Shown here: positions 24,409 to 50,315 of the stretch, in pieces | Position numbering within the stretch: the stretch's first letter is position 1 | How the letters are laid out: the number at the start of each line of letters is the position of its first letter | DNA from: a virus | Lineage: Duplodnaviria; Caudoviricetes | DNA: 59,478 nt | Reading direction: 5' to 3' (one strand) | IMG/VR virus record: IMGVR_UViG_3300037313_001722 | Span: 1 to 59,478 of that record | Made by a program: the position numbers and the translations under genes | Notes under the pieces: model-generated | Databases searched by the model: none | Told to the model about the DNA's origin: nothing | What the model saw: only the letters and a program-made list of their open reading frames with translations

Positions 24409-25361
24409 TGAGCGAGATCCAGAAGTCCCAGAGCCCCTTCGACGCGTTGAAGCGCGTGGACGAGCGGGGCGAGTTCTGGATGGCCCGGGACCTGATGGGT
24501 CCGACGGACTACACGGACTGGCGTCACTTCCAGCGAGCGATCAACGACGCCCGCACGGCGATGACTCAGAGTGGCTATGACGTCGCCCAGCATTTTTCGT
24601 TGGCGCCGACGAAAAATGCTGACCAGGGGAAACGCGGTCGACCGGGCGTCGACTGGCGCCTGTCGCGTACAGCGTGTCACTTCGTCTTCCTGAACGGAGA
24701 CCCCCGGAAGCCGGGTATCGCGGCGGCCCAGCAGTACTTCGTCGTGCAGACCCAGTTCGCCGAGAACGTCCAGCAGGCGATGGCCTCCAAGGCCGCCGTC
24801 ATGCCGAACCACATCGAAGCCCTGAGGGGCTGGGCGGACGCCCTGGAGGCCCAGCAGAAGGCCGAACTCCAGGCGGCCGAGGCGAAGGCCGAAGCCGAGA
24901 TGCTCCGGCCCCCGGCGGAGGCCTGGAACGTCCTCGTGGAGGGCGCCGACGGCGACTACTCCATGGCGGAGGCCGCCGCGATCCTGAACCGGGACCCGGC
25001 CATCGAGACCGGCCAGAACCGGCTGCGGGACTGGATGATCAACAACCGGATGATGTACCGCCGGGGCCGGGGTCAGCTCGTGCCGTACTCCGAGCACCTC
25101 CCCCACATCCGGCTCAAGCCGCAGACCCGTCCGGACCACGACGCCGACGACCCGAGGGCCCGCAAGGAGGCCAACGCCCAGGTGCGGATCACGGCCAAGG
25201 GCCTCGCGTGGATACAGCAGCACATGCGGGATCAGACGAAGCCCGTGCTGATCCCCTCGCCCCGGGAGCCCGAGCCGGTCCACAAGGTCTCCAAGCCGCT
25301 GGACATGCAGGAGTTCCGGGCGAAGTACGAGCGCCTGAGAGCCCAGTTCGGCAACCAGTAA
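24405..25361 (+). CDS. Phage antirepressor (DinD/Bro-like N-terminus + KilAC domain)
   Basis: SPFDALKR...EFWMARDLM...NGDPRKP.IAAAQ.YF; YSMAEAAAIL...GQNRL...QVRITAKG. Confidence 0.88.
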   Translation: MMSEIQKSQSPFDALKRVDERGEFWMARDLMGPTDYTDWRHFQRAINDARTAMTQSGYDVAQHFSLAPTKNADQGKRGRPGVDWRLSRTACHFVFLNGDPRKPGIAAAQQYFVVQTQFAENVQQAMASKAAVMPNHIEALRGWADALEAQQKAELQAAEAKAEAEMLRPPAEAWNVLVEGADGDYSMAEAAAILNRDPAIETGQNRLRDWMINNRMMYRRGRGQLVPYSEHLPHIRLKPQTRPDHDADDPRARKEANAQVRITAKGLAWIQQHMRDQTKPVLIPSPREPEPVHKVSKPLDMQEFRAKYERLRAQFGNQ

Positions 25362-25422
25362 GATCTACTCGCGGTCCCGCCCCGGGGAACGGACACGCCC
25401 CGGGGTTGGGAGCCGTCCACGC

Positions 25423-25472
25423 GCACGACGAAGGCCCTGGACTCCACAAGTTGTCCAGGGCCTTCGTCGTGC
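25423..25472. terminator. 20-bp perfect hairpin, probable bidirectional terminator
   Basis: GCACGACGAAGGCCCTGGAC / GTCCAGGGCCTTCGTCGTGC between convergent units. Confidence 0.75.
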
Positions 25473-25850
25473 CCATTTCGGGACGGGGCGGTGCGTTCCC
25501 CGGCTTATGCGGACCCGGTCGATGGCATGATCCGGAGTCCACCCGCCTCGCCAAAGCCGGGCTCATCTCACGGATCGAACCGAGTCCCTTCCCTGCAACC
25601 TTTTCCGCAGCGGCGGGAGGCTGTAGCCCACCTAGCCGGATCCGACGGGGCCCAAGTCGGTCCTGCTGCTTGTGCCGGGGCGATACCTTCCCGGCACGTC
25701 TCGAAGTCTAGGTGCCCCGTTACGGCCACAGCCGGGGCCACGCTGTTGGAGAGATCAACGTCCATGCCAGCACAGACGTGGATATTGGCCTTGACGCGCA
25801 TCGTCCCCATCTGGGGGACATGAACCACAGCAATAGCTCTTGCGCATCCG

Positions 25851-25958
25851 TGCGGGACGGGGGATTCGCACCCCCAACAGGAAAGCCGGTAGACGGGACA
25901 TCCCGGCCCTGCGCGGTCCCTCCGAAGGATTCCCGTCCATGCGGAGGAGCCATCCCGC
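25851..25958 (-). ncRNA. tRNA-like module within the large RNA
   Basis: Acceptor-like GCGGGAT/GTCCCGC+A stacked on T-arm GGGGG-TGCGAAT-CCCCC; no canonical anticodon arm. Confidence 0.5.
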
Positions 25959-26164
25959 TCCCTTGGTCCTCGGGGGTGGTTTGAGCACCTCTGGGGACCG
26001 TTGTGCAATAACAACCGGAGGCGTGGCGCTCGACCTGTCCAAAGTTCCGCACGATGCCCGGTCTTCGGGCCCGGCGGGAACCCCGGATACAGATCCCCGC
26101 CGCACCACTTCCAGTCCGTACCGTACGTCCGGGGACTGGGGGTCCCCGCCGGACTAACGAGATG

Positions 26165-26194
26165 AAGGTACTCCAACGAATGCCGGAGTAGCAA
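26165..26194 (-). promoter_or_regulatory. Promoter for the candidate ncRNA
   Basis: TTGCTA-18 bp-TACCTT with an overlapping TACTCC/GGAGTA inverted repeat. Confidence 0.55.
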
Positions 26195-26205
26195 GTGGAT
26201 CAGGG

Positions 26206-26478
26206 CTACCGCGCCCGGAACGCCTCGTAGATGGCGTCCAGCCCCTTCTGGACCAACTCCCGATGGGTGGCGCCCTCTTCGTGCATGGCCGGAAGATCGA
26301 TGATCCACTTCGCCTTGATCTCCGAGTCCCCCTCCGGAGAGAAGGTCAGCTCGAAGATGACACCCTCGTCGTCCACGGCATAGCGGACGTTCAGCAGGAA
26401 CGCCCCCTTCCCGTACAAGGGTGACTTCTCGATCAGCTCCAGGACGTCCGAGAAGAAGTCGCTCACTTGCGCCGCCAT
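26206..26478 (-). CDS. Hypothetical protein
   Basis: Protein-like from MAAQVSDFF; GGAGG RBS. Confidence 0.7.
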   Translation of the reverse strand: MAAQVSDFFSDVLELIEKSPLYGKGAFLLNVRYAVDDEGVIFELTFSPEGDSEIKAKWIIDLPAMHEEGATHRELVQKGLDAIYEAFRAR

Positions 26479-26866: not shown

Positions 26867-28420
26867 TCATTCCCCGAGCAGCATCTCGCGCCGCATGGCC
26901 GCCGTCAGGAACTCCGCTCCGTCTTCACCCGGACCGAGGAGCAGATCCGACTGCGCGTTGCCCCGGAGCATCGCGTAGACGAGGCCGATCTCCACCGTCT
27001 CGTTGGTGATCATCGAGCGGACGGTAGCCGTGGGGCCACCGGATCCGATCCGGCTGATCCGGTTCAGCCGCTGGGTCCTCAGGCCGTACGTCGTGGCGAC
27101 GTCGTACTCGACCAAGTAGGACGCCTCGGGGATGTTCACCCCTCGGGCCCCGGCGTCCGAGGTGAGCAGGACCGCGCCACCCTGGTGGACCTTGAACGCA
27201 TCCAGCTCGTGCAGGAAGAAGATCTTCATCCCGGCCTTGGTCAGGGCATCCGCCAACCACGGAAGGGCGCTCGGGCCAAAGAAGCTGAAGACCACCGCCT
27301 TGTCCTCCTGGTCCAGCACGATCGGCTCCAGGTAGGCCCTGAGCGCCTCCGTCTTGGCCGACGGGCAGTTCATCAGCCACTCGTGCCCGAATTCCTCCAC
27401 GAGCGTCCTGGCGAGCTTGCTGGAGCCCTCCTGGGCCGAATGGAGGAGCGCCCTCGGGTGGGCACAGATCTGCCGCAGGGCCTGGAGCTGACCACCCACC
27501 CCGTCCAGCTCGGCCACGAGGTCGTAGAGCTTCTTCTGGTCCCCCTCCAGGTCGACACGGAGGGGCTCCTCGGTCATCGCCGGGAACTGGTCGATGACGT
27601 CGGGGTCCGTCTTGCGCTTGGAGAGCATCAGGGGCTGGCAGAGGGCCGCGAACTCCTCAACCCGGTGGTCGAAGTACCTCGCTCGCCCGTAGATGTCCCG
27701 GCCCCGCACGAAGTACTTCTCGAACTCGCCGATCAGCGGCATGGCCTTCGGTCGCAGCAGCCGGAACTGGTGGAAGGAGTTCTCCAGATCCCTTCGGATC
27801 GAGGTGGCCGTCATCATGAACACCGGCAAGTTTTTAAAATGCTTCCGGAGGACCTTCAGGGTGTGCTCGTACGCCCCGTAGGTGGCCGAGGACCGGTTCG
27901 AGAGCTTGTCGGCCTCATCGAAGAAGACCACCGGCCTCCGGCCGGACGCGAGGATCTGCTCCAGCAGGTGACCGCTCTTGAACACCTTCCGGCGGCCGGA
28001 CTTGTCGATGGCCGTCAGGTCGGCCTTGCCGGTCTCGTACGTGGTGATCAGGACGTCCGGCAGCCCGAGCCTGGCCAGCTTGCTCTTGCGCGAGGGGCCG
28101 TGGTGGATCCGGGAGTCCAGGCGCGTGAACTTCTCGAAGTCGGCCTGCCACTCCTTGAGCTTGTTCCGCTCGCACACGAGGATCACGAGGTCCGCGATGC
28201 CGTCCTCGAAGGCCAGCGCGGAGAGCTGCATGGCCGCGTGGGACTTCCCCAGGCCGGTGTCCCAGGAGAACATCCACTCCGGCTGTTCGCCGCTCTGGAC
28301 GCCCACGTACGCCTGCGCGATGTGCTCTATCTGAAACGGATAGAGACCTCTGGGGCTCCAGTAAAGAGCCCCCTCCGGCCAGTTGGCATCGAAGGGGGCT
28401 TCTATCAGGGTCGTCGTCAT
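26867..28420 (-). CDS. SNF2-family helicase/ATPase
   Basis: DTGLGKS, ITTYE, FFDEAD, MTAT, LRQICAHP, SDAGARGVNI, QRLNRISRIG. Confidence 0.9.
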   Translation of the reverse strand: MTTTLIEAPFDANWPEGALYWSPRGLYPFQIEHIAQAYVGVQSGEQPEWMFSWDTGLGKSHAAMQLSALAFEDGIADLVILVCERNKLKEWQADFEKFTRLDSRIHHGPSRKSKLARLGLPDVLITTYETGKADLTAIDKSGRRKVFKSGHLLEQILASGRRPVVFFDEADKLSNRSSATYGAYEHTLKVLRKHFKNLPVFMMTATSIRRDLENSFHQFRLLRPKAMPLIGEFEKYFVRGRDIYGRARYFDHRVEEFAALCQPLMLSKRKTDPDVIDQFPAMTEEPLRVDLEGDQKKLYDLVAELDGVGGQLQALRQICAHPRALLHSAQEGSSKLARTLVEEFGHEWLMNCPSAKTEALRAYLEPIVLDQEDKAVVFSFFGPSALPWLADALTKAGMKIFFLHELDAFKVHQGGAVLLTSDAGARGVNIPEASYLVEYDVATTYGLRTQRLNRISRIGSGGPTATVRSMITNETVEIGLVYAMLRGNAQSDLLLGPGEDGAEFLTAAMRREMLLGE

Positions 28421-28710
28421 GTGAGGACCACCGCCTCGTCAATCTCGAACCCCCAGGCGATCTGGGCGTGACCCACCCTCCCCAGAGACTTGACCGCGAC
28501 GACGTCACCGTTGCAGCGCAGTTCGGCCACCGGCGCGTCCTTGTCACAGCGCACGATCGCGAAGAAGGTCACGTGGTTCTCGCCGACCACCTTGCGGGCA
28601 ACGCTCGACGCCCCGTCGACCACGATCGTCCACGGGCCCGGGTCGTGCAGTGCACGCTCGAACTGCCGCGCCCGCATCACCATGCGGGACACGACGTCTT
28701 CGAGACTCAT
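28417..28710 (-). CDS. Hypothetical protein
   Basis: GGAGG RBS; ATGA coupling to SNF2. Confidence 0.7.
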   Translation of the reverse strand: MSLEDVVSRMVMRARQFERALHDPGPWTIVVDGASSVARKVVGENHVTFFAIVRCDKDAPVAELRCNGDVVAVKSLGRVGHAQIAWGFEIDEAVVLT

Positions 28711-28794
28711 GTCGCCGTCCCTCCCGTTCTCCAGGAATTGTTCCTACTAGCATGGAATCTTAGCCAGGCGAACGGACGAACGTCTACGCGATCA

Positions 28795-31212
28795 TCAGAA
28801 CCCGAACGGAAGTACCAGGAAATCGGAGACGTTCGTCGTAGGCGCCAGCCGGTAGCCGAACTTCACGCGAGTGTTCCAGGTGCTGTCCGTGAAGGCGGAG
28901 ATTTGGGTTCCATTCGCCCGAACGATGACGCTGTTCCCATTGCAGTCCGCTTGGAGTAGTTGGCCTGTGGCCACAGGCGTACTGTGCGTGGCCACGGTTC
29001 CAGTAATCGTGTTCCCCGCCATCGAATACACATCCGTACGACCGATCAGATACCCCTTGGTCGTCGCTATGGTCTGGCCGCCGGAGAGGGACTTCTCGTG
29101 CAGGCACCGGACCATCAGGCCGGTGATCCGGTCGTCAGGGTGATACCCCGCGTTGTCCACGAAGTTGCCCATGATGGTGGTGCCGAACTGGAGCATGGCG
29201 CCATCGACATTCAGCGTGTGCCCAGCGGGGATCAGACTGCCCGGGGCGATGTAGCCCACCGTGCAGGCCATGTTCGCCGTGGAGGACGGGGCCACTCCCC
29301 CGACGTTGATCCGCGTCCAGGTGTTCAGCGTCGGTGTGGTGATGGTGTTCGTCGCACCGTTGCTGCCGAGGTAGTTCCAGGCCGAGTCGAAGTAGTCGAT
29401 CGTAAGAAGGATCTGGTGATTCCACTGCGGATAGACCCAGATGGAGAAGTTCATCGAGGTGCCCGGCGTGGTGGTCAGGGTGGTAGCGGCGCGGCTGTGA
29501 TCGGCCGTGGCCGAAGGGCCGATCGACAAAGAGGCGTCGCCGAACTTCGCCCGGGTGGTGTCCCGGCTGATCGTGACGCCCGGATCCCACCCCTGCCATC
29601 CCGTGGTGTTCGTCTCGAAGCCGTAGTTCGAGATGGCGTTCGTCCCGGCCGCCGCCGTCGGGTTGTAGGTGAACTGGCCCTGCACGATGACGTCAGAGCG
29701 TCCGGCCGAGTAGATCGCCGGGGTCCCCCGAGTCGGGTACGGCCCGTTGGCCGCGTTCAGCACGACCTTGCTGGAGGCGATCGTGAAGGGGTTGGTCGAC
29801 CGGTAGTCGGGGCTCGCCGACGGGAGCTTCCACTGGAGGGCCTGGCCGGTCTCCGCGAACTCCATCGGGGTCGCGTCCGGCTGATGGGCTCCCTGGTACA
29901 CCAGGGGGACGCTCGCGGTGTAGATCAGGCCCAGGTTGGCCAGAGCCGTCATGAGCTGGTCCACCACGGTGTTGGAGACGGCCGTGGAGTCCACCGGGAC
30001 GTTCGGCCGGGTGGTACCGGTCGCCCCGAAGAAGCCCAGGGTCGTGGTGGCGTTGGAGTAGGTCCGCTGACCGTTGACCACGACGTCGCCCTGGGCCCGC
30101 AGGGCCGTCTGGGTGTACATGTTGCCCTGGATCAGGCCGATCGACGGAGACCACGTCGTGGAGCTGGTTCCCATGGCCAACGGGCTGACCCCGCCGAACC
30201 AGTCGTCTGCGGAAGTCTGGGTGCTGGGATCTCCGGCCAGCGATACCTGGGAACCGCCCAGAGCAAACGGCGTCTGCGCTCCGGCCCAGGGCAGGCCGTT
30301 GCTCTGGGCGGAGTTTGCCGGTCCCACCACCGTGTGGTTGCTTCCTGCCCCGAAGACGGCCGAGTGATTCGGTCCGACCTTGACCACTCCGGAGGACCCG
30401 ACGGTGCTTCCCGGGCCGATCAGAGTGGAGCCGTTGGCCGCACTGGACGCGGTGTTCATGCCGCCGAGAACGGTCATGTCCCTGGCCATGGCCGTAAGGT
30501 TCCCCGGACCGGCCACCGTGGATCCCGAGGTGGCATCTCCGTTCTCGGAGGACAGCACGGTGGCCATGTCTCCCGAGGTTCCGACGAAGGTCTGCGGGAC
30601 GATCCCCGCATAGCCCAGGAGGGTCGAAGAGGATCCGCTCAGCTCCGCGTTGGCGCCGTACGCGCTGGAGGCCGTGGAGGTGGCCGCCGCGTTCTCCCCG
30701 GCGTGGTAGCCCACCCAGGTCTGGTACGGGTTGAAGTCCGTCGGAGCCTCGCCGGTGAGGACCACCGATCCGGCAGAGTCGCCCGCGTGCTGATGGGTGC
30801 CCACCGGGTCGGCCACCCGGAAGGAGGCCCGGCCCGGTTCGGAGGCCATGAGGACGGCCGTGGACACCGTCTGGTCGGCCCCGTCGACCGTGAGGGGCTT
30901 CGGGGCCCGGAAGATGTTGTCGGCCGGGGGCATGATGTCGATCCCGTCCAGGACGACCCGGACGTTGTCCGAGACCTCCGCGACGATCTGCACGCGAACG
31001 GGATCGTCGGTCCACAGATCCACGATGGCCGGATCCACGAACAGCGGGAAGGAGACCGGGTTTCCGTCCTGAGGCTGGACGTAGACGTTCGTCGTCACCG
31101 GAGTGCCGGTGTCCGCGTCGTAGAGCGTGATCGTGGCGTACGGGAAGACGTCTCCCGAACTGTTCGTGATCGGCAGGTGGAGGTGGCAGCGGGGCTGCAC
31201 CGGTGTGGTCAC
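28795..31212 (-). CDS. Tail fibre paralogue 3 with CBM4/9-like carbohydrate-binding domain
   Basis: True start GTG 31212 (VTTPVQPRCHL); shared N-terminal domain; ISNYGFETNTTGW...W motif. Confidence 0.75.
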   Translation of the reverse strand: MTTPVQPRCHLHLPITNSSGDVFPYATITLYDADTGTPVTTNVYVQPQDGNPVSFPLFVDPAIVDLWTDDPVRVQIVAEVSDNVRVVLDGIDIMPPADNIFRAPKPLTVDGADQTVSTAVLMASEPGRASFRVADPVGTHQHAGDSAGSVVLTGEAPTDFNPYQTWVGYHAGENAAATSTASSAYGANAELSGSSSTLLGYAGIVPQTFVGTSGDMATVLSSENGDATSGSTVAGPGNLTAMARDMTVLGGMNTASSAANGSTLIGPGSTVGSSGVVKVGPNHSAVFGAGSNHTVVGPANSAQSNGLPWAGAQTPFALGGSQVSLAGDPSTQTSADDWFGGVSPLAMGTSSTTWSPSIGLIQGNMYTQTALRAQGDVVVNGQRTYSNATTTLGFFGATGTTRPNVPVDSTAVSNTVVDQLMTALANLGLIYTASVPLVYQGAHQPDATPMEFAETGQALQWKLPSASPDYRSTNPFTIASSKVVLNAANGPYPTRGTPAIYSAGRSDVIVQGQFTYNPTAAAGTNAISNYGFETNTTGWQGWDPGVTISRDTTRAKFGDASLSIGPSATADHSRAATTLTTTPGTSMNFSIWVYPQWNHQILLTIDYFDSAWNYLGSNGATNTITTPTLNTWTRINVGGVAPSSTANMACTVGYIAPGSLIPAGHTLNVDGAMLQFGTTIMGNFVDNAGYHPDDRITGLMVRCLHEKSLSGGQTIATTKGYLIGRTDVYSMAGNTITGTVATHSTPVATGQLLQADCNGNSVIVRANGTQISAFTDSTWNTRVKFGYRLAPTTNVSDFLVLPFGF

Positions 31213-45600: not shown

Positions 45601-46316
45601 CAGTGACCTATCGGGCCGGGCGGAAGGGTCTGGGTGGGGCCCTTACCGGGCTGATACGGCACGCCACCCCAGGAGGGGTCGCCTCCGGCGTCGGAGCCGC
45701 CCTGGGTACCGCCGTTGATGATGTCCTGGATGTCCTGGATCGTCGTGACCTTGTCGTAGCTCCCCTCGGCCGGGACCTGCGAGCCGGAGAGCTGGATGCC
45801 GGAGGGGTAGAAGTACGCGATCTGAGGAGACCGGTCCAGGGCCCCGGCCGGGTAGATGAAGTACGAGATCCAGTTGTAGGTGCCCGGGGTGTCCCCGAGC
45901 GACTGGTCCACATGGGTCTCGAAGATGACCCGGGGCGTCCAGACCATCGAGCCGACGTGGTCTCCCCACTCGATCCCGGCGACCGGCACGCCGTACCGTT
46001 CGAAGCTCCGGGCCGAGCAGGTGACGCGCATGGTCGGGAACTTGCTGACGCTCAGACCCGGATCCTGGACGCGCTTGACGTAGTCCACGAGATAGTTCGA
46101 GAACTGCACACGCTCCTGGTAGCCCTTGATGACCGGAACCAGCGAGAAGGGCACCGAGGACACCTGGTGCGGGTAGTAGGCCCGCCGGGTCCGCGCCTGG
46201 GACTCGTCGGCGACCATCCGGGAGCCGTGGGCGATCTCCTGCACCCGCAGGGAGAAGGTGTACCTCTTCCCGTTGTAGCTGTACGACAGCGTGGTGTTCA
46301 GTCCAGACCTGGCCAC
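45600..46316 (-). CDS. Minor tail/baseplate protein
   Basis: Synteny between tape measure and hub. Confidence 0.65.
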   Translation of the reverse strand: MARSGLNTTLSYSYNGKRYTFSLRVQEIAHGSRMVADESQARTRRAYYPHQVSSVPFSLVPVIKGYQERVQFSNYLVDYVKRVQDPGLSVSKFPTMRVTCSARSFERYGVPVAGIEWGDHVGSMVWTPRVIFETHVDQSLGDTPGTYNWISYFIYPAGALDRSPQIAYFYPSGIQLSGSQVPAEGSYDKVTTIQDIQDIINGGTQGGSDAGGDPSWGGVPYQPGKGPTQTLPPGPIGH

Positions 46317-46317
46317 G

Positions 46318-46536
46318 TCACAGCCCCTCGTCGTAGCGGATGACCTGCTGCTGCGGGTCCTCCGGGGCGAACGTGGGGGTCGAGATGCGCGCGAAGTCGG
46401 CCTGGGAGAGGTCGTAGGCCAGGCCGTTGGCCGTGAAGCAGAACCCGTCCATCGGGATGATGCCGGGGTTGTCCTCGGCCAGCGGCTGAGGGAGGGACAC
46501 GGGGACGTCCGATCCCCAGTGGATGGGCTCCGTCAT
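46318..46536 (-). CDS. Small hypothetical tail-region protein
   Basis: ATGA coupling. Confidence 0.6.
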   Translation of the reverse strand: MTEPIHWGSDVPVSLPQPLAEDNPGIIPMDGFCFTANGLAYDLSQADFARISTPTFAPEDPQQQVIRYDEGL

Positions 46537-47249
46537 TGGTCCTGCCGATCAAGGGTCGTGTCCGGCGTGACATCCGGATGGCTCTTTTTAAATTCCTTCT
46601 CCCATTGGGCACTTGGGGTCGATCCGCCGTTGTAGGCCGTGAACTTCCAGCCGATGCCCTGCGAGATGCGGGCAATGTAGGCGTCCACGGCCTTCGCTCG
46701 GGCCTGGTCCAGGACGCCGTTGGACATACCGGCCTTGGTCAGCTCCGTGGACCCCTCCTGGATCGGGAAGAGGGTGAGCACGTACCGGTAGTTCGCCCGG
46801 CCGACCCGGTGGACCACTCCGGCCGTACCGTCTCCGTCGGGGTCCACGATGGACTTGATGTAGCACTGGAATCGCAGGCCCTTGGGCGAGTACACGAAGG
46901 TCGCGGGCTCCAGGAAGAAGTTGTCCCCCTTCCCGGCGGACCCCGGCGTGTTCGCCCCGGCGCTCTGGAGCTGCTGGAGGGCCTGGATCTGAAGGAAGAA
47001 CTGGGAGGCCAGCTTCCAGGAGACGCCCGGGTGCTCTCCCCCGTTCGACCCCCGGCCCATGTTGTGGGCCTCGCCGATGGACCCCTGGACCACGACGTCG
47101 GACACCGTGGTGCCGAGGACCTGGATCACCCGGCCGCCCACGGTGTTGATCACCGACGTGTGGACCTTGATGTTGTAGTCGAACGACTCGGGGTCCACTC
47201 GGAACGTGATGGAGGGACCGTTGGCGAAGCCCAGTTTGGCCAGTCCCAT
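46533..47249 (-). CDS. Tail tube initiator-like protein
   Basis: FRVDPESF...TVGGRVIQVLG; directly after tape measure. Confidence 0.6.
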   Translation of the reverse strand: MGLAKLGFANGPSITFRVDPESFDYNIKVHTSVINTVGGRVIQVLGTTVSDVVVQGSIGEAHNMGRGSNGGEHPGVSWKLASQFFLQIQALQQLQSAGANTPGSAGKGDNFFLEPATFVYSPKGLRFQCYIKSIVDPDGDGTAGVVHRVGRANYRYVLTLFPIQEGSTELTKAGMSNGVLDQARAKAVDAYIARISQGIGWKFTAYNGGSTPSAQWEKEFKKSHPDVTPDTTLDRQDQ

Positions 47250-47250
47250 G

Positions 47251-49797
47251 TCACCTACTCGCGTTCCAGTTGTAGGGGTTCAGCGGCGGGGCGCCCTCTC
47301 CGTTCGCCCCCGCGATGCCGGTCGCGGAGGAGATCTTCAAGAGCTGCTTCGCCGTGTCCGAAAGATCCACTACGACCTTACCGTTTGCAGCGGTCCCGCC
47401 GCTGTTGGCCGACGTCTTCCGGCTCGGGTGCTTCTTCTCCCACTCCTTGATGGAGGTCCCCTCGTTGCCCTTGGACTTGGACGCTTCCGAGGTCCAGTTG
47501 GCCGTGCTGTCGGTCGCACCGGTGCCCAGGAGGTCCTGGACCGACTTGCCCGATTCCGAGCCGTCCACGAACCGCACGGAACCTGCGGACAGCTCCTCGG
47601 AGTGGTTCTTGATGGCGTCCTTCAGGGACACCACCCGCTGGCCCTTGGAGGTGTGGACGACCACCTTGGCCGAGTCCTGGTCCTTGACGTGCTGGAGCAG
47701 GTTCTCGATCACCGGGTTGCGCTGACCGGACTTCTTGACCTGGTTCTTGTACTGAACCATGGCGGACGAGTCGCCCTTGTCGGTGCCGATGTCGTCCACG
47801 ATCCCGGCCGTGACCGTCTCCACGAAGGCGCCACCGATCTTGGCAGCGGTGCTGGAGCCGTGGTCGATCTTGGTGGAGAAGCCCTTGATGAAGCCGGAGT
47901 CCTTGCCCTGCTTCGCCGCCTGCTTGGTCGACATGGGTTTGTTGGCCTTGGCGTTCTTCTCCGCATTGGCCAAGTCGCCGTTCTGCCCGGCGATCAGGGT
48001 GAACGCGTACGCCACGGCCTTCTGCGGGTCACTGGTCTGGACGATGCCGAACGCCGCGAGCTGCTGCTGGATGACCGAGATGTTGTGGTTCGGGAAGGCC
48101 TGCATGAACGCGGGCACGATGCTCAGGGCCGCGTCCGAGTCGAGCTGGCCGCCGAGCCCGTTCGCCTGCTGCTTGACCCAGTTGATCTCGTCCTGGGTGA
48201 AGATCTGCGACAGCAGCGAGAGATTCTCCCCGGCCCGTGCCTGAGCCGCCGCGAGCGGGTTGGTGGTCTGCAACGCGGTGTACTGGTTGTACGTCATCCC
48301 GGCGTTCGAGGACGCCATGTAGGCGTACTGCTGGCCCATCTGGCCGGACAGGTCGATGTCCTCGTACGACCGGCCCAGGGACGTCTTGCCCATCTGGATG
48401 TTCTGGGCCGTCGGGATGGCACCGGCACCGTAGCCCGCCTGCACCCCCGTACTCACCATGTCCATGAGCTGCTTGCGGGCCATCTGGGCGTTGACGCCCG
48501 CCCGACCGGCGGTGTCCGAGACGTCCTTGAGGGCCTTCTGGAGGCCGTTCAGGGACAGGGTGGAGTTCTTGGACACCACTTCGAGCTGCTGGAGGCTCTC
48601 GGACACGGAGGCGCCGTACGAGGACTTCCCGTGGTAGATGAAGTCCAGCGCGTTCTGGCGTCCGCCCTGACGCGAGTACTGATCCCGGACGCGGCCGTTG
48701 TACCCCAGGCGGGTCACGCCCTTGAAGGCCTGCCGGGCCTCCTCGTCGGTGAAGAAGCCCGTCGTGGAGGCGACATACGCCTCCTCGTGGAGCCGCTCAC
48801 CGAAGCCGGAGAAGTTTCCGCCGCCCTCGACGTTCTGGTAGTACTCGTTCTTGTTCCGCTGGCTCTTGACCTCGCCGAAGGCGCTATCGACCAGTCCTAC
48901 GAGGGGGATGTTCCGCCGGGCCCAGCCGCCGATGCCGGAGTTCATGCCCCACAGATGGCCAGGGTTGCCCGGGGTGTGGTTGGCGCCGTAGGCACCGGAA
49001 CCCCCGCCAGCACCGCCGTGACCTCCGCCGCCACTGGCGGGACCGTACGGGCCATAGGGGCCGTAGGGGCCGTGTGGGGAGCCGGGACCGCCGAAGTAGA
49101 TGGGGTTCGGGGGCAGGCCGGAGGGTCCCATGCCGTACGGGCCGGGACCGAAGCCTCCACCGCCGAAGCCCCCTCCCGAGCCCCCAGAGCCGCCGCCAGA
49201 GCCTCCCGAGCCGCCGCTGCCACCACTTCCCCCGGAGCCTCCCGGAGGACGCCAGTAGGGCGACCAGACACCGAAGGCGGACCGGCTCCAGTTCTGCCGG
49301 GTCTGCTGGATGGTCCGGTCCCTCAGATCGGAGAGGGTGGCTCCCCAGTCGCCCGCGTTGGTGGGCATCCGGGTGTGGTCCTGGAGGAACTGCGCGGTGA
49401 CCTGGCCGACCGGCGGAAGGCTCCACCGAGGCCCTCGGGGAGCCGGAGACGGTCCTGCCGGGGCGCCGGAAGCCGAGGGAGCGCTCGGAGCGGATCCTCC
49501 GGACGCGGATCCCGGGGTGGGCGGCAGAGACGTGATCGTGTAGACAGGTCCGCTGGGTGCCGATGTCGTGTGTCCGGCCAGAGGGTTGTGGGCGCCCATG
49601 CCGACACGGAAGCTGGCCGCCGCAGCGGATCCGGTTCCCGTCATGAAGGACTGGGCCATGTGCAGTGATCGCGCCATGGAGTCCCGCATCTCCCCCATGA
49701 CGCGGGCCGTGTTCTCCTGGCCGCGCACGAGCAGGGAGAACAGGCGGCCCAGGTCCAGGTTGTCGTTGACGCCGCTGTCCGGCTCGCCGTCTGCCAT
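47251..49797 (-). CDS. Tape measure protein
   Basis: Follows the frameshifted chaperone; Ala/Gly/Gln-rich with a Gly-Ser tract. Confidence 0.75.
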   Translation of the reverse strand: MADGEPDSGVNDNLDLGRLFSLLVRGQENTARVMGEMRDSMARSLHMAQSFMTGTGSAAAASFRVGMGAHNPLAGHTTSAPSGPVYTITSLPPTPGSASGGSAPSAPSASGAPAGPSPAPRGPRWSLPPVGQVTAQFLQDHTRMPTNAGDWGATLSDLRDRTIQQTRQNWSRSAFGVWSPYWRPPGGSGGSGGSGGSGGSGGGSGGSGGGFGGGGFGPGPYGMGPSGLPPNPIYFGGPGSPHGPYGPYGPYGPASGGGGHGGAGGGSGAYGANHTPGNPGHLWGMNSGIGGWARRNIPLVGLVDSAFGEVKSQRNKNEYYQNVEGGGNFSGFGERLHEEAYVASTTGFFTDEEARQAFKGVTRLGYNGRVRDQYSRQGGRQNALDFIYHGKSSYGASVSESLQQLEVVSKNSTLSLNGLQKALKDVSDTAGRAGVNAQMARKQLMDMVSTGVQAGYGAGAIPTAQNIQMGKTSLGRSYEDIDLSGQMGQQYAYMASSNAGMTYNQYTALQTTNPLAAAQARAGENLSLLSQIFTQDEINWVKQQANGLGGQLDSDAALSIVPAFMQAFPNHNISVIQQQLAAFGIVQTSDPQKAVAYAFTLIAGQNGDLANAEKNAKANKPMSTKQAAKQGKDSGFIKGFSTKIDHGSSTAAKIGGAFVETVTAGIVDDIGTDKGDSSAMVQYKNQVKKSGQRNPVIENLLQHVKDQDSAKVVVHTSKGQRVVSLKDAIKNHSEELSAGSVRFVDGSESGKSVQDLLGTGATDSTANWTSEASKSKGNEGTSIKEWEKKHPSRKTSANSGGTAANGKVVVDLSDTAKQLLKISSATGIAGANGEGAPPLNPYNWNASR

Positions 49798-50315
49798 CAG
49801 ACCCACTCCGTATCTTGCTCAACCTGCGTCGGATCGAAGTCTCGGGGCGGAGGCAGCGAGGGGGTGCTGTCCTCCGGCGGGGAGGGCTGTTCGGCGTCCG
49901 GCCCCTCCAGCGGGGCCCCGTCGACCGTGACCGTGTTGTCGGCCAGCATCCGGGCGAGGACCTCCAGTTCGTCCTCGGACGGCGCCTCGTAGTCCACACC
50001 GCTGTTGTCGGTGTAGTCGATCCCGTCGGACTCCGGAGTCTCGGAGGGGAAGTACTCCTCGAAGAGAACCTCCTCCTTGTACTGGCCGGAGGCCACCAGG
50101 CCCGCCTTGGCCACGTTCAGCAGGAGCTTGCGCCGGAACTCCTCCTCCCGCTCCTCCCGTTCGGCCTCCTTCAGGCCGTCGGCGAAGCGGAGGTACTCCA
50201 GACCGAGGATCTGCACCTCGGAGAGGTTGTCCCCCTGGAGAAGCCCCCGGGCCTGAGCCTGCCTCAGGATCCGCTCTACGAAGGGTTCGAGCCCTCGGGG
50301 GCCGATGCTTTTCCC
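49797..50315 (-). CDS. Tail assembly chaperone extension (-1 frameshift product)
   Basis: Frame becomes protein-like exactly at the GGGAAAA slippery site (50315-50309); no obvious own start. Confidence 0.8.
   Translation of the reverse strand, partial: GKSIGPRGLEPFVERILRQAQARGLLQGDNLSEVQILGLEYLRFADGLKEAEREEREEEFRRKLLLNVAKAGLVASGQYKEEVLFEEYFPSETPESDGIDYTDNSGVDYEAPSEDELEVLARMLADNTVTVDGAPLEGPDAEQPSPPEDSTPSLPPPRDFDPTQVEQDTEWV

Follow-up and report, generated by a model that had tools for sequence, protein, structure and literature searches.

A candidate large structured RNA gene of uncultivated soil myoviruses, predicted from a conserved non-coding element between convergent phage genes

Few bacterial and phage non-coding RNAs of more than 500 nucleotides (nt) with conserved structure are known, amounting to about a dozen classes. 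In this paper, we describe an element in the gap between two convergent genes of a virus record of 59,478 base pairs (bp) from IMG/VR (IMGVR_UViG_3300037313_001722; this whole stretch of DNA is referred to as the window), which by its architecture is most likely nearest in kind to the large phage RNAs GOLLD and ROOL. In the account of Kretsch et al. (bioRxiv 10.1101/2024.12.08.627333), the 3' region of GOLLD is conserved, its 5' region less so, and its linker contains tRNAs in some cases, while ROOL, of about 580 nt, occurs in phages and prophages near tRNA islands; both have recently been shown to form RNA-only cages, and the function of either RNA is still unknown. Like GOLLD, the element would be a large phage-borne non-coding RNA, with a variable middle (holding a tRNA-like module in three of five distinct copies) and a conserved 3' domain; however, the tRNAs of the two related genomes G004 and G003 lie more than 75 kb from the element, and the embedded module is no recognisable tRNA. 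It shares with ROOL the predicted character of a large ornate phage RNA, but it is not located near tRNA islands.

A comparison with Rfam 15 (4227 models), carried out by cmscan at gathering scores over the window and at E<=10 over positions 25300-26300, gave no match at gathering scores across the whole window. Around the locus only eight sub-threshold matches were obtained, which we regard as noise and none of which was to RNase P, group I or II introns, 6S RNA or riboswitches, a result in favour of the novelty suggested in an initial annotation of this DNA. That annotation had also recognised no GOLLD or ROOL motifs in the gap, and neither model has a match in any of the four records searched, i.e. 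the window record (G000) and the related records G002, G003 and G004. GOLLD (RF02032, threshold 150 bits) is absent at E<=10 from these records and from the locus scan, and at E<=1 from a cmscan of three relatives. ROOL (RF03087, threshold 99.1 bits) is likewise absent from all four records and from the locus scan at E<=10, the latter being the better test because the search with the ROOL model matched in none of its control genomes. No tmRNA was found in the window by either ARAGORN or Rfam, and YrlA (RF02553) has no match in the element, neither in the locus scan nor in those of three relatives. The predicted tRNA-like module, described below, does resemble that of YrlA and the mascRNA of MALAT1, in that a longer predicted transcript contains a 7-bp acceptor stem stacked on a T arm of 5 bp whose T loop is nearly canonical, but the YrlA model does not match the element, and the module has neither a D arm nor a 7-nt anticodon loop. 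The module also differs from the tRNA-like domain of tmRNA, which joins the ends of the RNA and goes with a tag frame, whereas the acceptor strands of the element are internal. A survey of IMG/VR for structured RNAs, which shares with the present work the data source and the inference from covariation in intergenic regions, has reported 8,495 candidates with motifs of 29-151 nt (PMC10690425, Comput Struct Biotechnol J 2023); given these lengths, none of its motifs as described there spans the element of about 735 nt. No large RNA of this kind was found in the literature searched, and the supplementary tables of that survey might list sub-motifs.

We consider it rather probable that the gap holds an undescribed gene for a large structured phage RNA, whose product would act as a folded RNA. 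The element is non-coding, syntenic and present once per genome, with conserved ends and covarying helices; the possibly undescribed class of large phage RNA proposed in the initial annotation is thus supported by the lack of an Rfam match, by homologues, by covariation and by the absence of an open reading frame (ORF). Six related contigs were found in IMG/VR by scans that used the polymerase, the helicase and an alignment of helicases. The element is present in six contigs, five of them distinct (the window and four further uncultivated phage contigs), as G001 and G003 are identical over the region and were counted as one copy. The helicases of G002, G007 (also L167), G004 and L170 are 79%, 71%, 65% and 46% identical to that of the window, respectively; two of the relatives, G003 (156 kb) and G004 (160 kb), are complete genomes, each with one copy of the element. 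As revealed by blastn, the similarity is patchy and collinear across the whole element in all the related contigs except L170. The gene order in the four distinct relatives checked is an SNF2 helicase, zero to two small genes, the element and, in convergent orientation, an Ant-like gene; of this order G007 covers the helicase end, its element starting at the stop codon of the helicase. Identity among the Ant-like proteins is no more than 42-55%, yet the element retains blocks of up to 18 identical bases. It seems to us the best explanation of these data that the carriers are uncultivated soil myoviruses of one small clade, with genomes of about 150 kb and high guanine plus cytosine (GC) content.

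The gap, described earlier as about 840 bp long, measures 844 bp (25362-26205), and no other stretch of the window lacking codon periodicity is as long. The spread of GC content among the three codon phases has a median of 0.10 and a maximum of 0.24 across the gap, versus a median of 0.52 and a minimum of 0.32 in the neighbouring helicase gene, in agreement with the previous statement that the gap holds no credible protein. In all five distinct copies the element is non-coding, because codon periodicity is lacking (median spreads of 0.08-0.14), only about a third of the indels are multiples of three (5/16, 5/14, 6/22 and 3/13), and similarity at the translated level is seen in all frames of both strands over one and the same set of conserved DNA blocks, no single frame being kept. 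A conserved ORF, which would have spoken against an RNA gene, is thus not present.

Searches beyond these contigs have added little to the family. No GenBank phage matched the copies of the window, G001 or G004 in the distant mode of blastn; scans of IMG/VR with three motifs of the element returned only the known contigs and two chance matches (G005 and G006), and single-protein scans with the two flanking proteins returned nothing. A two-block pattern of the element has no match in species-representative genomes. A metagenome scan with the conserved 18-mer, which says nothing on the rarity of the element, gave 119 chance matches in coding regions among the 120 matches listed, the remaining one being the source contig of G002. 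Contigs from four runs contained one near-identical field variant of the element and traces of a further relative. The latter, from the soil or rhizosphere runs X4 and X5, keeps the blocks at window positions 25561-25629 and 25985-26041, separated by 271 nt rather than the 355 nt of the window.

Covariation was examined at several scales. In the test of the whole element, four copies were aligned by MAFFT from sequence alone and the fold was taken from the window alone; 70.7% of the alignment cells can pair, compared with 36-44% when the partners are slid. The number of pairs changed on both sides, which is the fairer measure here because the window's own cells pair by construction, is 48, compared with 17-22 for slid partners and 26.7 +/- 3.8 for shuffled alignments, none of 500 shuffles reaching 48. 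In the 3' domain, for which an RNAalifold consensus of five sequences was used, 85.9% of the cells are paired (36-54% slid) and 15 pairs are changed on both sides (2-6 slid), with a structure derived from the very alignment used for counting. A long arm within this domain (25587-25511) was found by a model built on the window only in G002 (35.9 bits), G001 (23.1 bits) and G007 (13.8 bits). Across the window and these three relatives, pairing holds in 93.1% of 87 cells, and both partners have changed in 13 of 23 pairs (0-3 slid, 5.2 +/- 1.8 shuffled), in an alignment fitted to the structure and hence favouring it. The same arm is the independent minimum-energy fold in G002, G001 and G007, and lies 1.4 kcal/mol above the minimum in the window. 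Model R1, based on the window alone, finds G004, only part of G002 and not G001, and the variable junctions could not be aligned by MAFFT well enough for RNAalifold. Altogether, pairing is preserved by both-side changes about two to four times as often as in the controls, and the covariation asked for in the initial annotation is found among homologues from four further distinct phage contigs, above both slid and shuffled controls.

Several observations weigh against an RNA gene, in addition to the two alignment choices just mentioned. The family model R3 does not find the long arm in G004 (nor anything in L170). Folding energy gives a divided answer: with the terminal hairpin included the window folds better than its shuffles, with z-scores of -3.8 on the minus and -4.6 on the plus strand; without that hairpin the scores fall to -1.9 and -1.6, and on the element strand of G002, G001 and G004 they are -0.25, -2.7 and -5.35, with similar values on the opposite strand, so that two of four homologues fold no better than shuffles on either strand. 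The element is absent from L170 and from Rhodococcus phage E3, despite the same neighbourhood being kept in both, and the family consists of five distinct sequences, none of them in a cultured phage. All 12 of the listed runs that contain the element sequence are DNA. A sigma-70 consensus scan of the window (TTGACA, 16-18 nt, TATAAT, at least 9 of 12 positions) gave no site, the promoter-like motif of the element agreeing with the consensus at 7 of 12 positions, which is weak. The strand is not decided by the larger alignments either: their consensus folding shows no preference, and the ratio of G-U to A-C cells in the whole MAFFT alignment is 35:18 in G002 and G001, 18:30 in the poorly aligned G004, and 53:48 over the three together, which is not significant. 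On the other side, the tRNA-like module has its T loop and its G-U pairs on the minus strand, the consensus fold of this module favours that strand (-69.6 versus -60.7), the terminal hairpin shows seven G-U cells against no A-C cell, and the promoter motif reads on the minus strand, as does the upstream operon; together these make a modest case for it.

The two ends are the parts that all copies share. At the 5' end a promoter-like motif (26165-26194, minus strand), starting 12 nt past the stop codon of the upstream gene, consists of a -35 element TTGCTA, an 18-nt spacer and a -10 element TACCTT, from which a transcription start near 26158 is predicted. The form TTGnnn-17/18-TAnnnT, which fits that of actinobacterial housekeeping promoters, lies directly past the upstream stop codon at the same place in all five homologues, the five -35 elements being TTGCTA, TTGTAC, TTGACT, TTGACG (G007) and TTGCTA and the -10 elements TACCTT, TAACGT, TAACCT, TAGCGT and TAGCGT. 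The promoter of the initial annotation is therefore located where it was placed and is kept in form in 5/5 copies; considered in the window alone, it does not rise above chance, in view of the empty consensus scan. The loose pattern TTG-N21-TANNNT has a chance expectation of 2.5 per window, and the promoter-like motif is its only match there. The spacer is conserved as well, with GCATTCGTTGGAG identical in three of the five homologues, and this conservation suggests a bound regulator, for which the spacer may be the operator; in the window the spacer (26171-26188) holds an inverted repeat TACTCC/GGAGTA, and the motif recurs nowhere else in the window.

At the 3' end, the 20-bp terminal hairpin noticed previously is perfect and located at 25423-25472 (minus strand; helix 7, 96% of cells paired), with a conserved loop (ACAACTTGTGGAG), and is preceded by the conserved CCCGAAATG at 25482-25474. 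A long terminal hairpin is present in all five copies with the loop ACAACTYGTGGAG conserved, and its stem covaries, with four pairs changed on both sides; helices 6 and 7 of the 3' end together have seven G-U cells and no A-C cell. The hairpin is followed by no U tract on the minus strand and only by TTT on the plus strand, and the terminator scan gave no site; actinobacterial terminators are often without a U tract. A second GC-rich palindromic hairpin, CCCCGGGG ... CCCCGGGG (25382-25407), lies between the terminal hairpin and the stop codon of the Ant-like gene, and is probably the terminator of the latter; judged by eye, a strong hairpin occurs at this position in 5/5 homologues. The two hairpins on the plus strand weakly match the model of the Streptomyces small RNA Scr3202 (29.8 bits, threshold 52).

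These ends bear directly on an alternative that we consider unlikely but worth weighing in full, namely that the element is a cis-acting structured 3' untranslated region or terminator zone, which ends and stabilises the helicase operon and insulates it from the convergent Ant-like unit, so that no separate RNA gene would exist. The element always lies at the point of convergence behind the helicase operon, beginning in G007 at the very stop codon of the helicase, and ends in two strong tandem hairpins; the weakness of its promoter by consensus and the exclusively DNA runs also count on this side. Nevertheless, the terminators are preceded by about 650 nt of structure that is conserved and covaries, far beyond what termination needs, the -35/-10 motif is conserved in all five copies, and a tRNA-like module is situated inside. 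Moreover, Rhodococcus phage E3 manages the same gene order, i.e. helicase, two small genes and convergent genes, with a gap of only 200 bp at the place of the element (L192 5066-5839). One of the small genes beyond the helicase in this phage is annotated as a fragment of a sigma-70 factor.

The tRNA-like module (25852-25958, minus strand) belongs to the middle part. It consists of a 7-bp acceptor stem (25958-25952 with 25858-25852) and a 5-bp T arm (25875-25859) with the loop UGCGAAU or, in other copies, UUCGAAU, and is found in the window, G002 and G001; between the stems there are one or two long arms, two in the window, and neither a D arm nor a 7-nt anticodon loop. The acceptor strands span 107 nt within the element. 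None of the 36 cells of its 12 pairs in three sequences is broken, three pairs being changed on both sides and three changes leading to G-U, so that the acceptor, the T arm, the UUCGAAU-type loop and the covariation expected of a tRNA-like structure are all in place. The site gives a weak match to the tRNA-Sec model (21.1 bits, threshold 47, 25852-25958, minus strand). ARAGORN reports no tRNA or tmRNA gene in the window and no tRNA gene in the loci of all the relatives, and the tRNA model RF00005 has no match at E<=0.01 in G000 and G002 and none at the element in G003 and G004. A pattern of the T arm and acceptor strand had five matches in species-representative genomes, one of which was a real tRNA; the module, in its 3' half, is therefore not a copy of a common host tRNA. 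G004 and G007 carry other sequence at its place, and the middle of the element is for this reason regarded as a variable module.

A link of the module to Ro proteins was considered and rejected, as G003 has both the module and a Ro gene, G004 has neither, and the YrlA-like RNAs of G003 sit by its Ro gene. That gene, which is Ro60-like with a TROVE domain (E 3.2e-20), is found at L186 5849-8147 (C1 about 45849-48147), with the two YrlA-like RNAs just upstream (37.7 and 36.3 bits, below the 69-bit threshold), the whole lying about 85 kb from the element. No TROVE match was obtained in the window, G002 or G004, and no RtcB in the four records.

If the element is an RNA gene, as we favour, its primary transcript would measure about 735 nt, beginning near 26158 on the minus strand and reaching the hairpin that ends at 25423. 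Transcription would start at a sigma-70-type promoter belonging to the element, with additional read-through out of the helicase operon. The RNA would be modular, with a 5' part made up of the conserved 18-mer and hairpins, a variable middle that in three of five copies has the tRNA-like acceptor/T-arm module, and a conserved 3' domain that comprises junctions and a single long arm, closed by the terminal hairpin with its conserved loop. Like GOLLD and ROOL, it may serve as a folded scaffold that acts in trans. Since tRNA-like modules within longer RNAs are substrates of RNase P, the module, where present, could recruit tRNA-processing enzymes such as RNase P, whose cut would separate the precursor into 5' and 3' pieces. 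A bolder version of this model, which we hold to be decidedly improbable, is that the element represents a third independent class of giant ornate phage RNA, self-assembling into an RNA-only particle during lytic growth, whose swappable middle module (the tRNA-like minihelix or other folds) would be displayed or released, serving as cargo or as a decoy for tRNA-directed enzymes of the host. With or without such assembly, a further unrelated class of large RNA in high-GC soil phages would indicate a more widespread use of such RNAs among large phages, and the interchangeable middle would offer a natural handle on what the tRNA association of such RNAs is for.

The modularity of the middle might also be taken to mean that the element is a cluster of independent small RNAs and regulatory hairpins and not one large RNA, which appears very unlikely to us. 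Most of the supported helices are indeed local, the middle is variable, and the tRNA-like module could conceivably be released alone; yet just one promoter-like motif is conserved, at the 5' end, and the window has no other TTG-N21-TANNNT match, a scan found no terminator-like site inside the element, and the order of blocks is collinear in all copies. More improbable still is that the element is an origin of replication with a promoter for a structured primer RNA, comparable to ColE1 RNA II or the T4 origin transcripts. The element does lie in the replication module beside helicases and a DnaE-like polymerase, with its own promoter-like motif and a change of GC skew within about 3 kb, but it contains no iterons and no AT-rich stretch, the skew change falls on the border of the structural and replication modules and is in G004 a step and not a V-shaped minimum, and the element ends in a strong hairpin where a primer RNA should run into the origin. 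Least probable of all is what amounts to the null hypothesis, that we are looking at decaying remains of genes or tRNA genes, similar by recent common descent and not by function: the tRNA-like piece confined to 3/5 copies, the large indels between copies and the unremarkable folding energy of two of four homologues would suit decay, but blocks of up to 18 nt are identical despite flanking proteins diverged to 42-79% identity, both-side changes keep pairing well above the controls, and both ends are conserved in 5/5 copies.

The remaining parts of the proposed RNA gene, all on the minus strand, are given from the 5' end. An 82-nt hairpin (26071-26152), closed by a 14-bp helix (26152-26139 with 26084-26071), is present as first described and 93% complementary; G002, G001 and G007 lack it and G004 cannot be aligned here, and the helix with the hairpin it encloses is an insertion specific to the window copy and not a shared feature. 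The small hairpin GCCCG-AAGAC-CGGGC (26056-26070) is replaced at the same place in the relatives by a hairpin of different sequence, as judged by eye. It is followed by the most conserved block, the 18-mer (26023-26040), whose 3' half would form pairs with the 10 nt that follow, and which is identical in the window, G002 and G001/G003, has one change in G007 and is absent in G004. The conserved block TGCACAACGG and a hairpin with the base GGTCC/GGACC (25965-26007; alignment columns 277-288 with 300-311) come next, with four pairs of the hairpin changed on both sides and a 14-bp version in G007. Downstream of the tRNA-like module, a three-way junction (25793-25848; helices 12-14, 67-78% of cells paired) has the closing helix GATGCGC/GCGCGTC and two hairpins, one of them GTCCCC/GGGGAC; it is kept in G002 with other sequences and reduced to one hairpin in G001. 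A hairpin GCCCCG ... CGGGGC (25714-25738) has six pairs in four sequences with two cells broken.

A second three-way junction (25630-25713) is formed by ACCTAG/CTAGGT, which encloses the hairpins GTGCCGGG/CCCGGCAC and GACCGAC/GTCGGATC. A model of this junction from the window alone aligns G004 with 27 bits (E 5.5e-4), and the closed two-hairpin shape is the minimum-energy fold in three of five copies and within 0.2 kcal/mol of it in a fourth; the same shape arises in 142 of 1000 shuffles (14%). The conserved hairpin region CCTCCCG ... CGGAAAAGG ... CAGGGA (25589-25620; helix 2, 78% of cells paired) has two alternative pairings. The long irregular arm (25511-25587) is built of three stacked helices with the conserved motifs GAGAT and GGTGGACTCC. 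While the other arms listed in the initial annotation are present in the window sequence, three of its proposals have to be revised. Two adjacent changes in the near-identical field variant break the GTTGT/ACAAC helix, which is not kept in the relatives; the supposed T-loop hairpin at 25582-25571 gives way to a covarying helix in which GATCCG (25576-25571) pairs with CGGATC (25534-25529); and the CCGGCTT/AAGCCGG helix conflicts with the covarying long arm. Two further pairings have been tried and rejected. Positions 26070-26051 could plausibly pair over a long range with 25568-25549 in the window and G002, but this pairing fails in G001 and competes with a covarying hairpin, and a pairing of the terminal loop with the TGCACAACGG block has one compensatory case (G001) and one contrary case (G007).

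As for the setting, the window has a GC content of 66% and an estimated completeness of about 40%. Its proteins include a DnaE-like polymerase, DnaB-like and SNF2 helicases, a tail sheath, a baseplate protein and minor tail proteins, and with these replication and tail proteins it is therefore part of a large myovirus. The nearest cultured phages, both large, are Rhodococcus phage E3 and Mycobacterium phage Phrappuccino, with identities of 32-33% in the polymerase and 25-27% in the helicase, and the host is accordingly likely to be an actinobacterium. The plus-strand gene that flanks the gap, stopping at 25361, encodes a protein of 318 amino acids with a KilAC/ANT anti-repressor domain (E 3.2e-17), and the minus-strand gene on the other side, stopping at 26206, encodes one of 118 amino acids without a family match. 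The second-longest stretch of weak codon periodicity, 48871-49710, lies within an ORF of 851 amino acids (47251-49806) that has no PHROG match. The GC skew steps from about -0.03 to about +0.10 near positions 28000-30000, at the border of the replication and structural modules; the step is present though the genes on both sides share a strand, the sense strand of the structural genes being C-rich, and the same step is seen in the complete genome G004 at about 140000.

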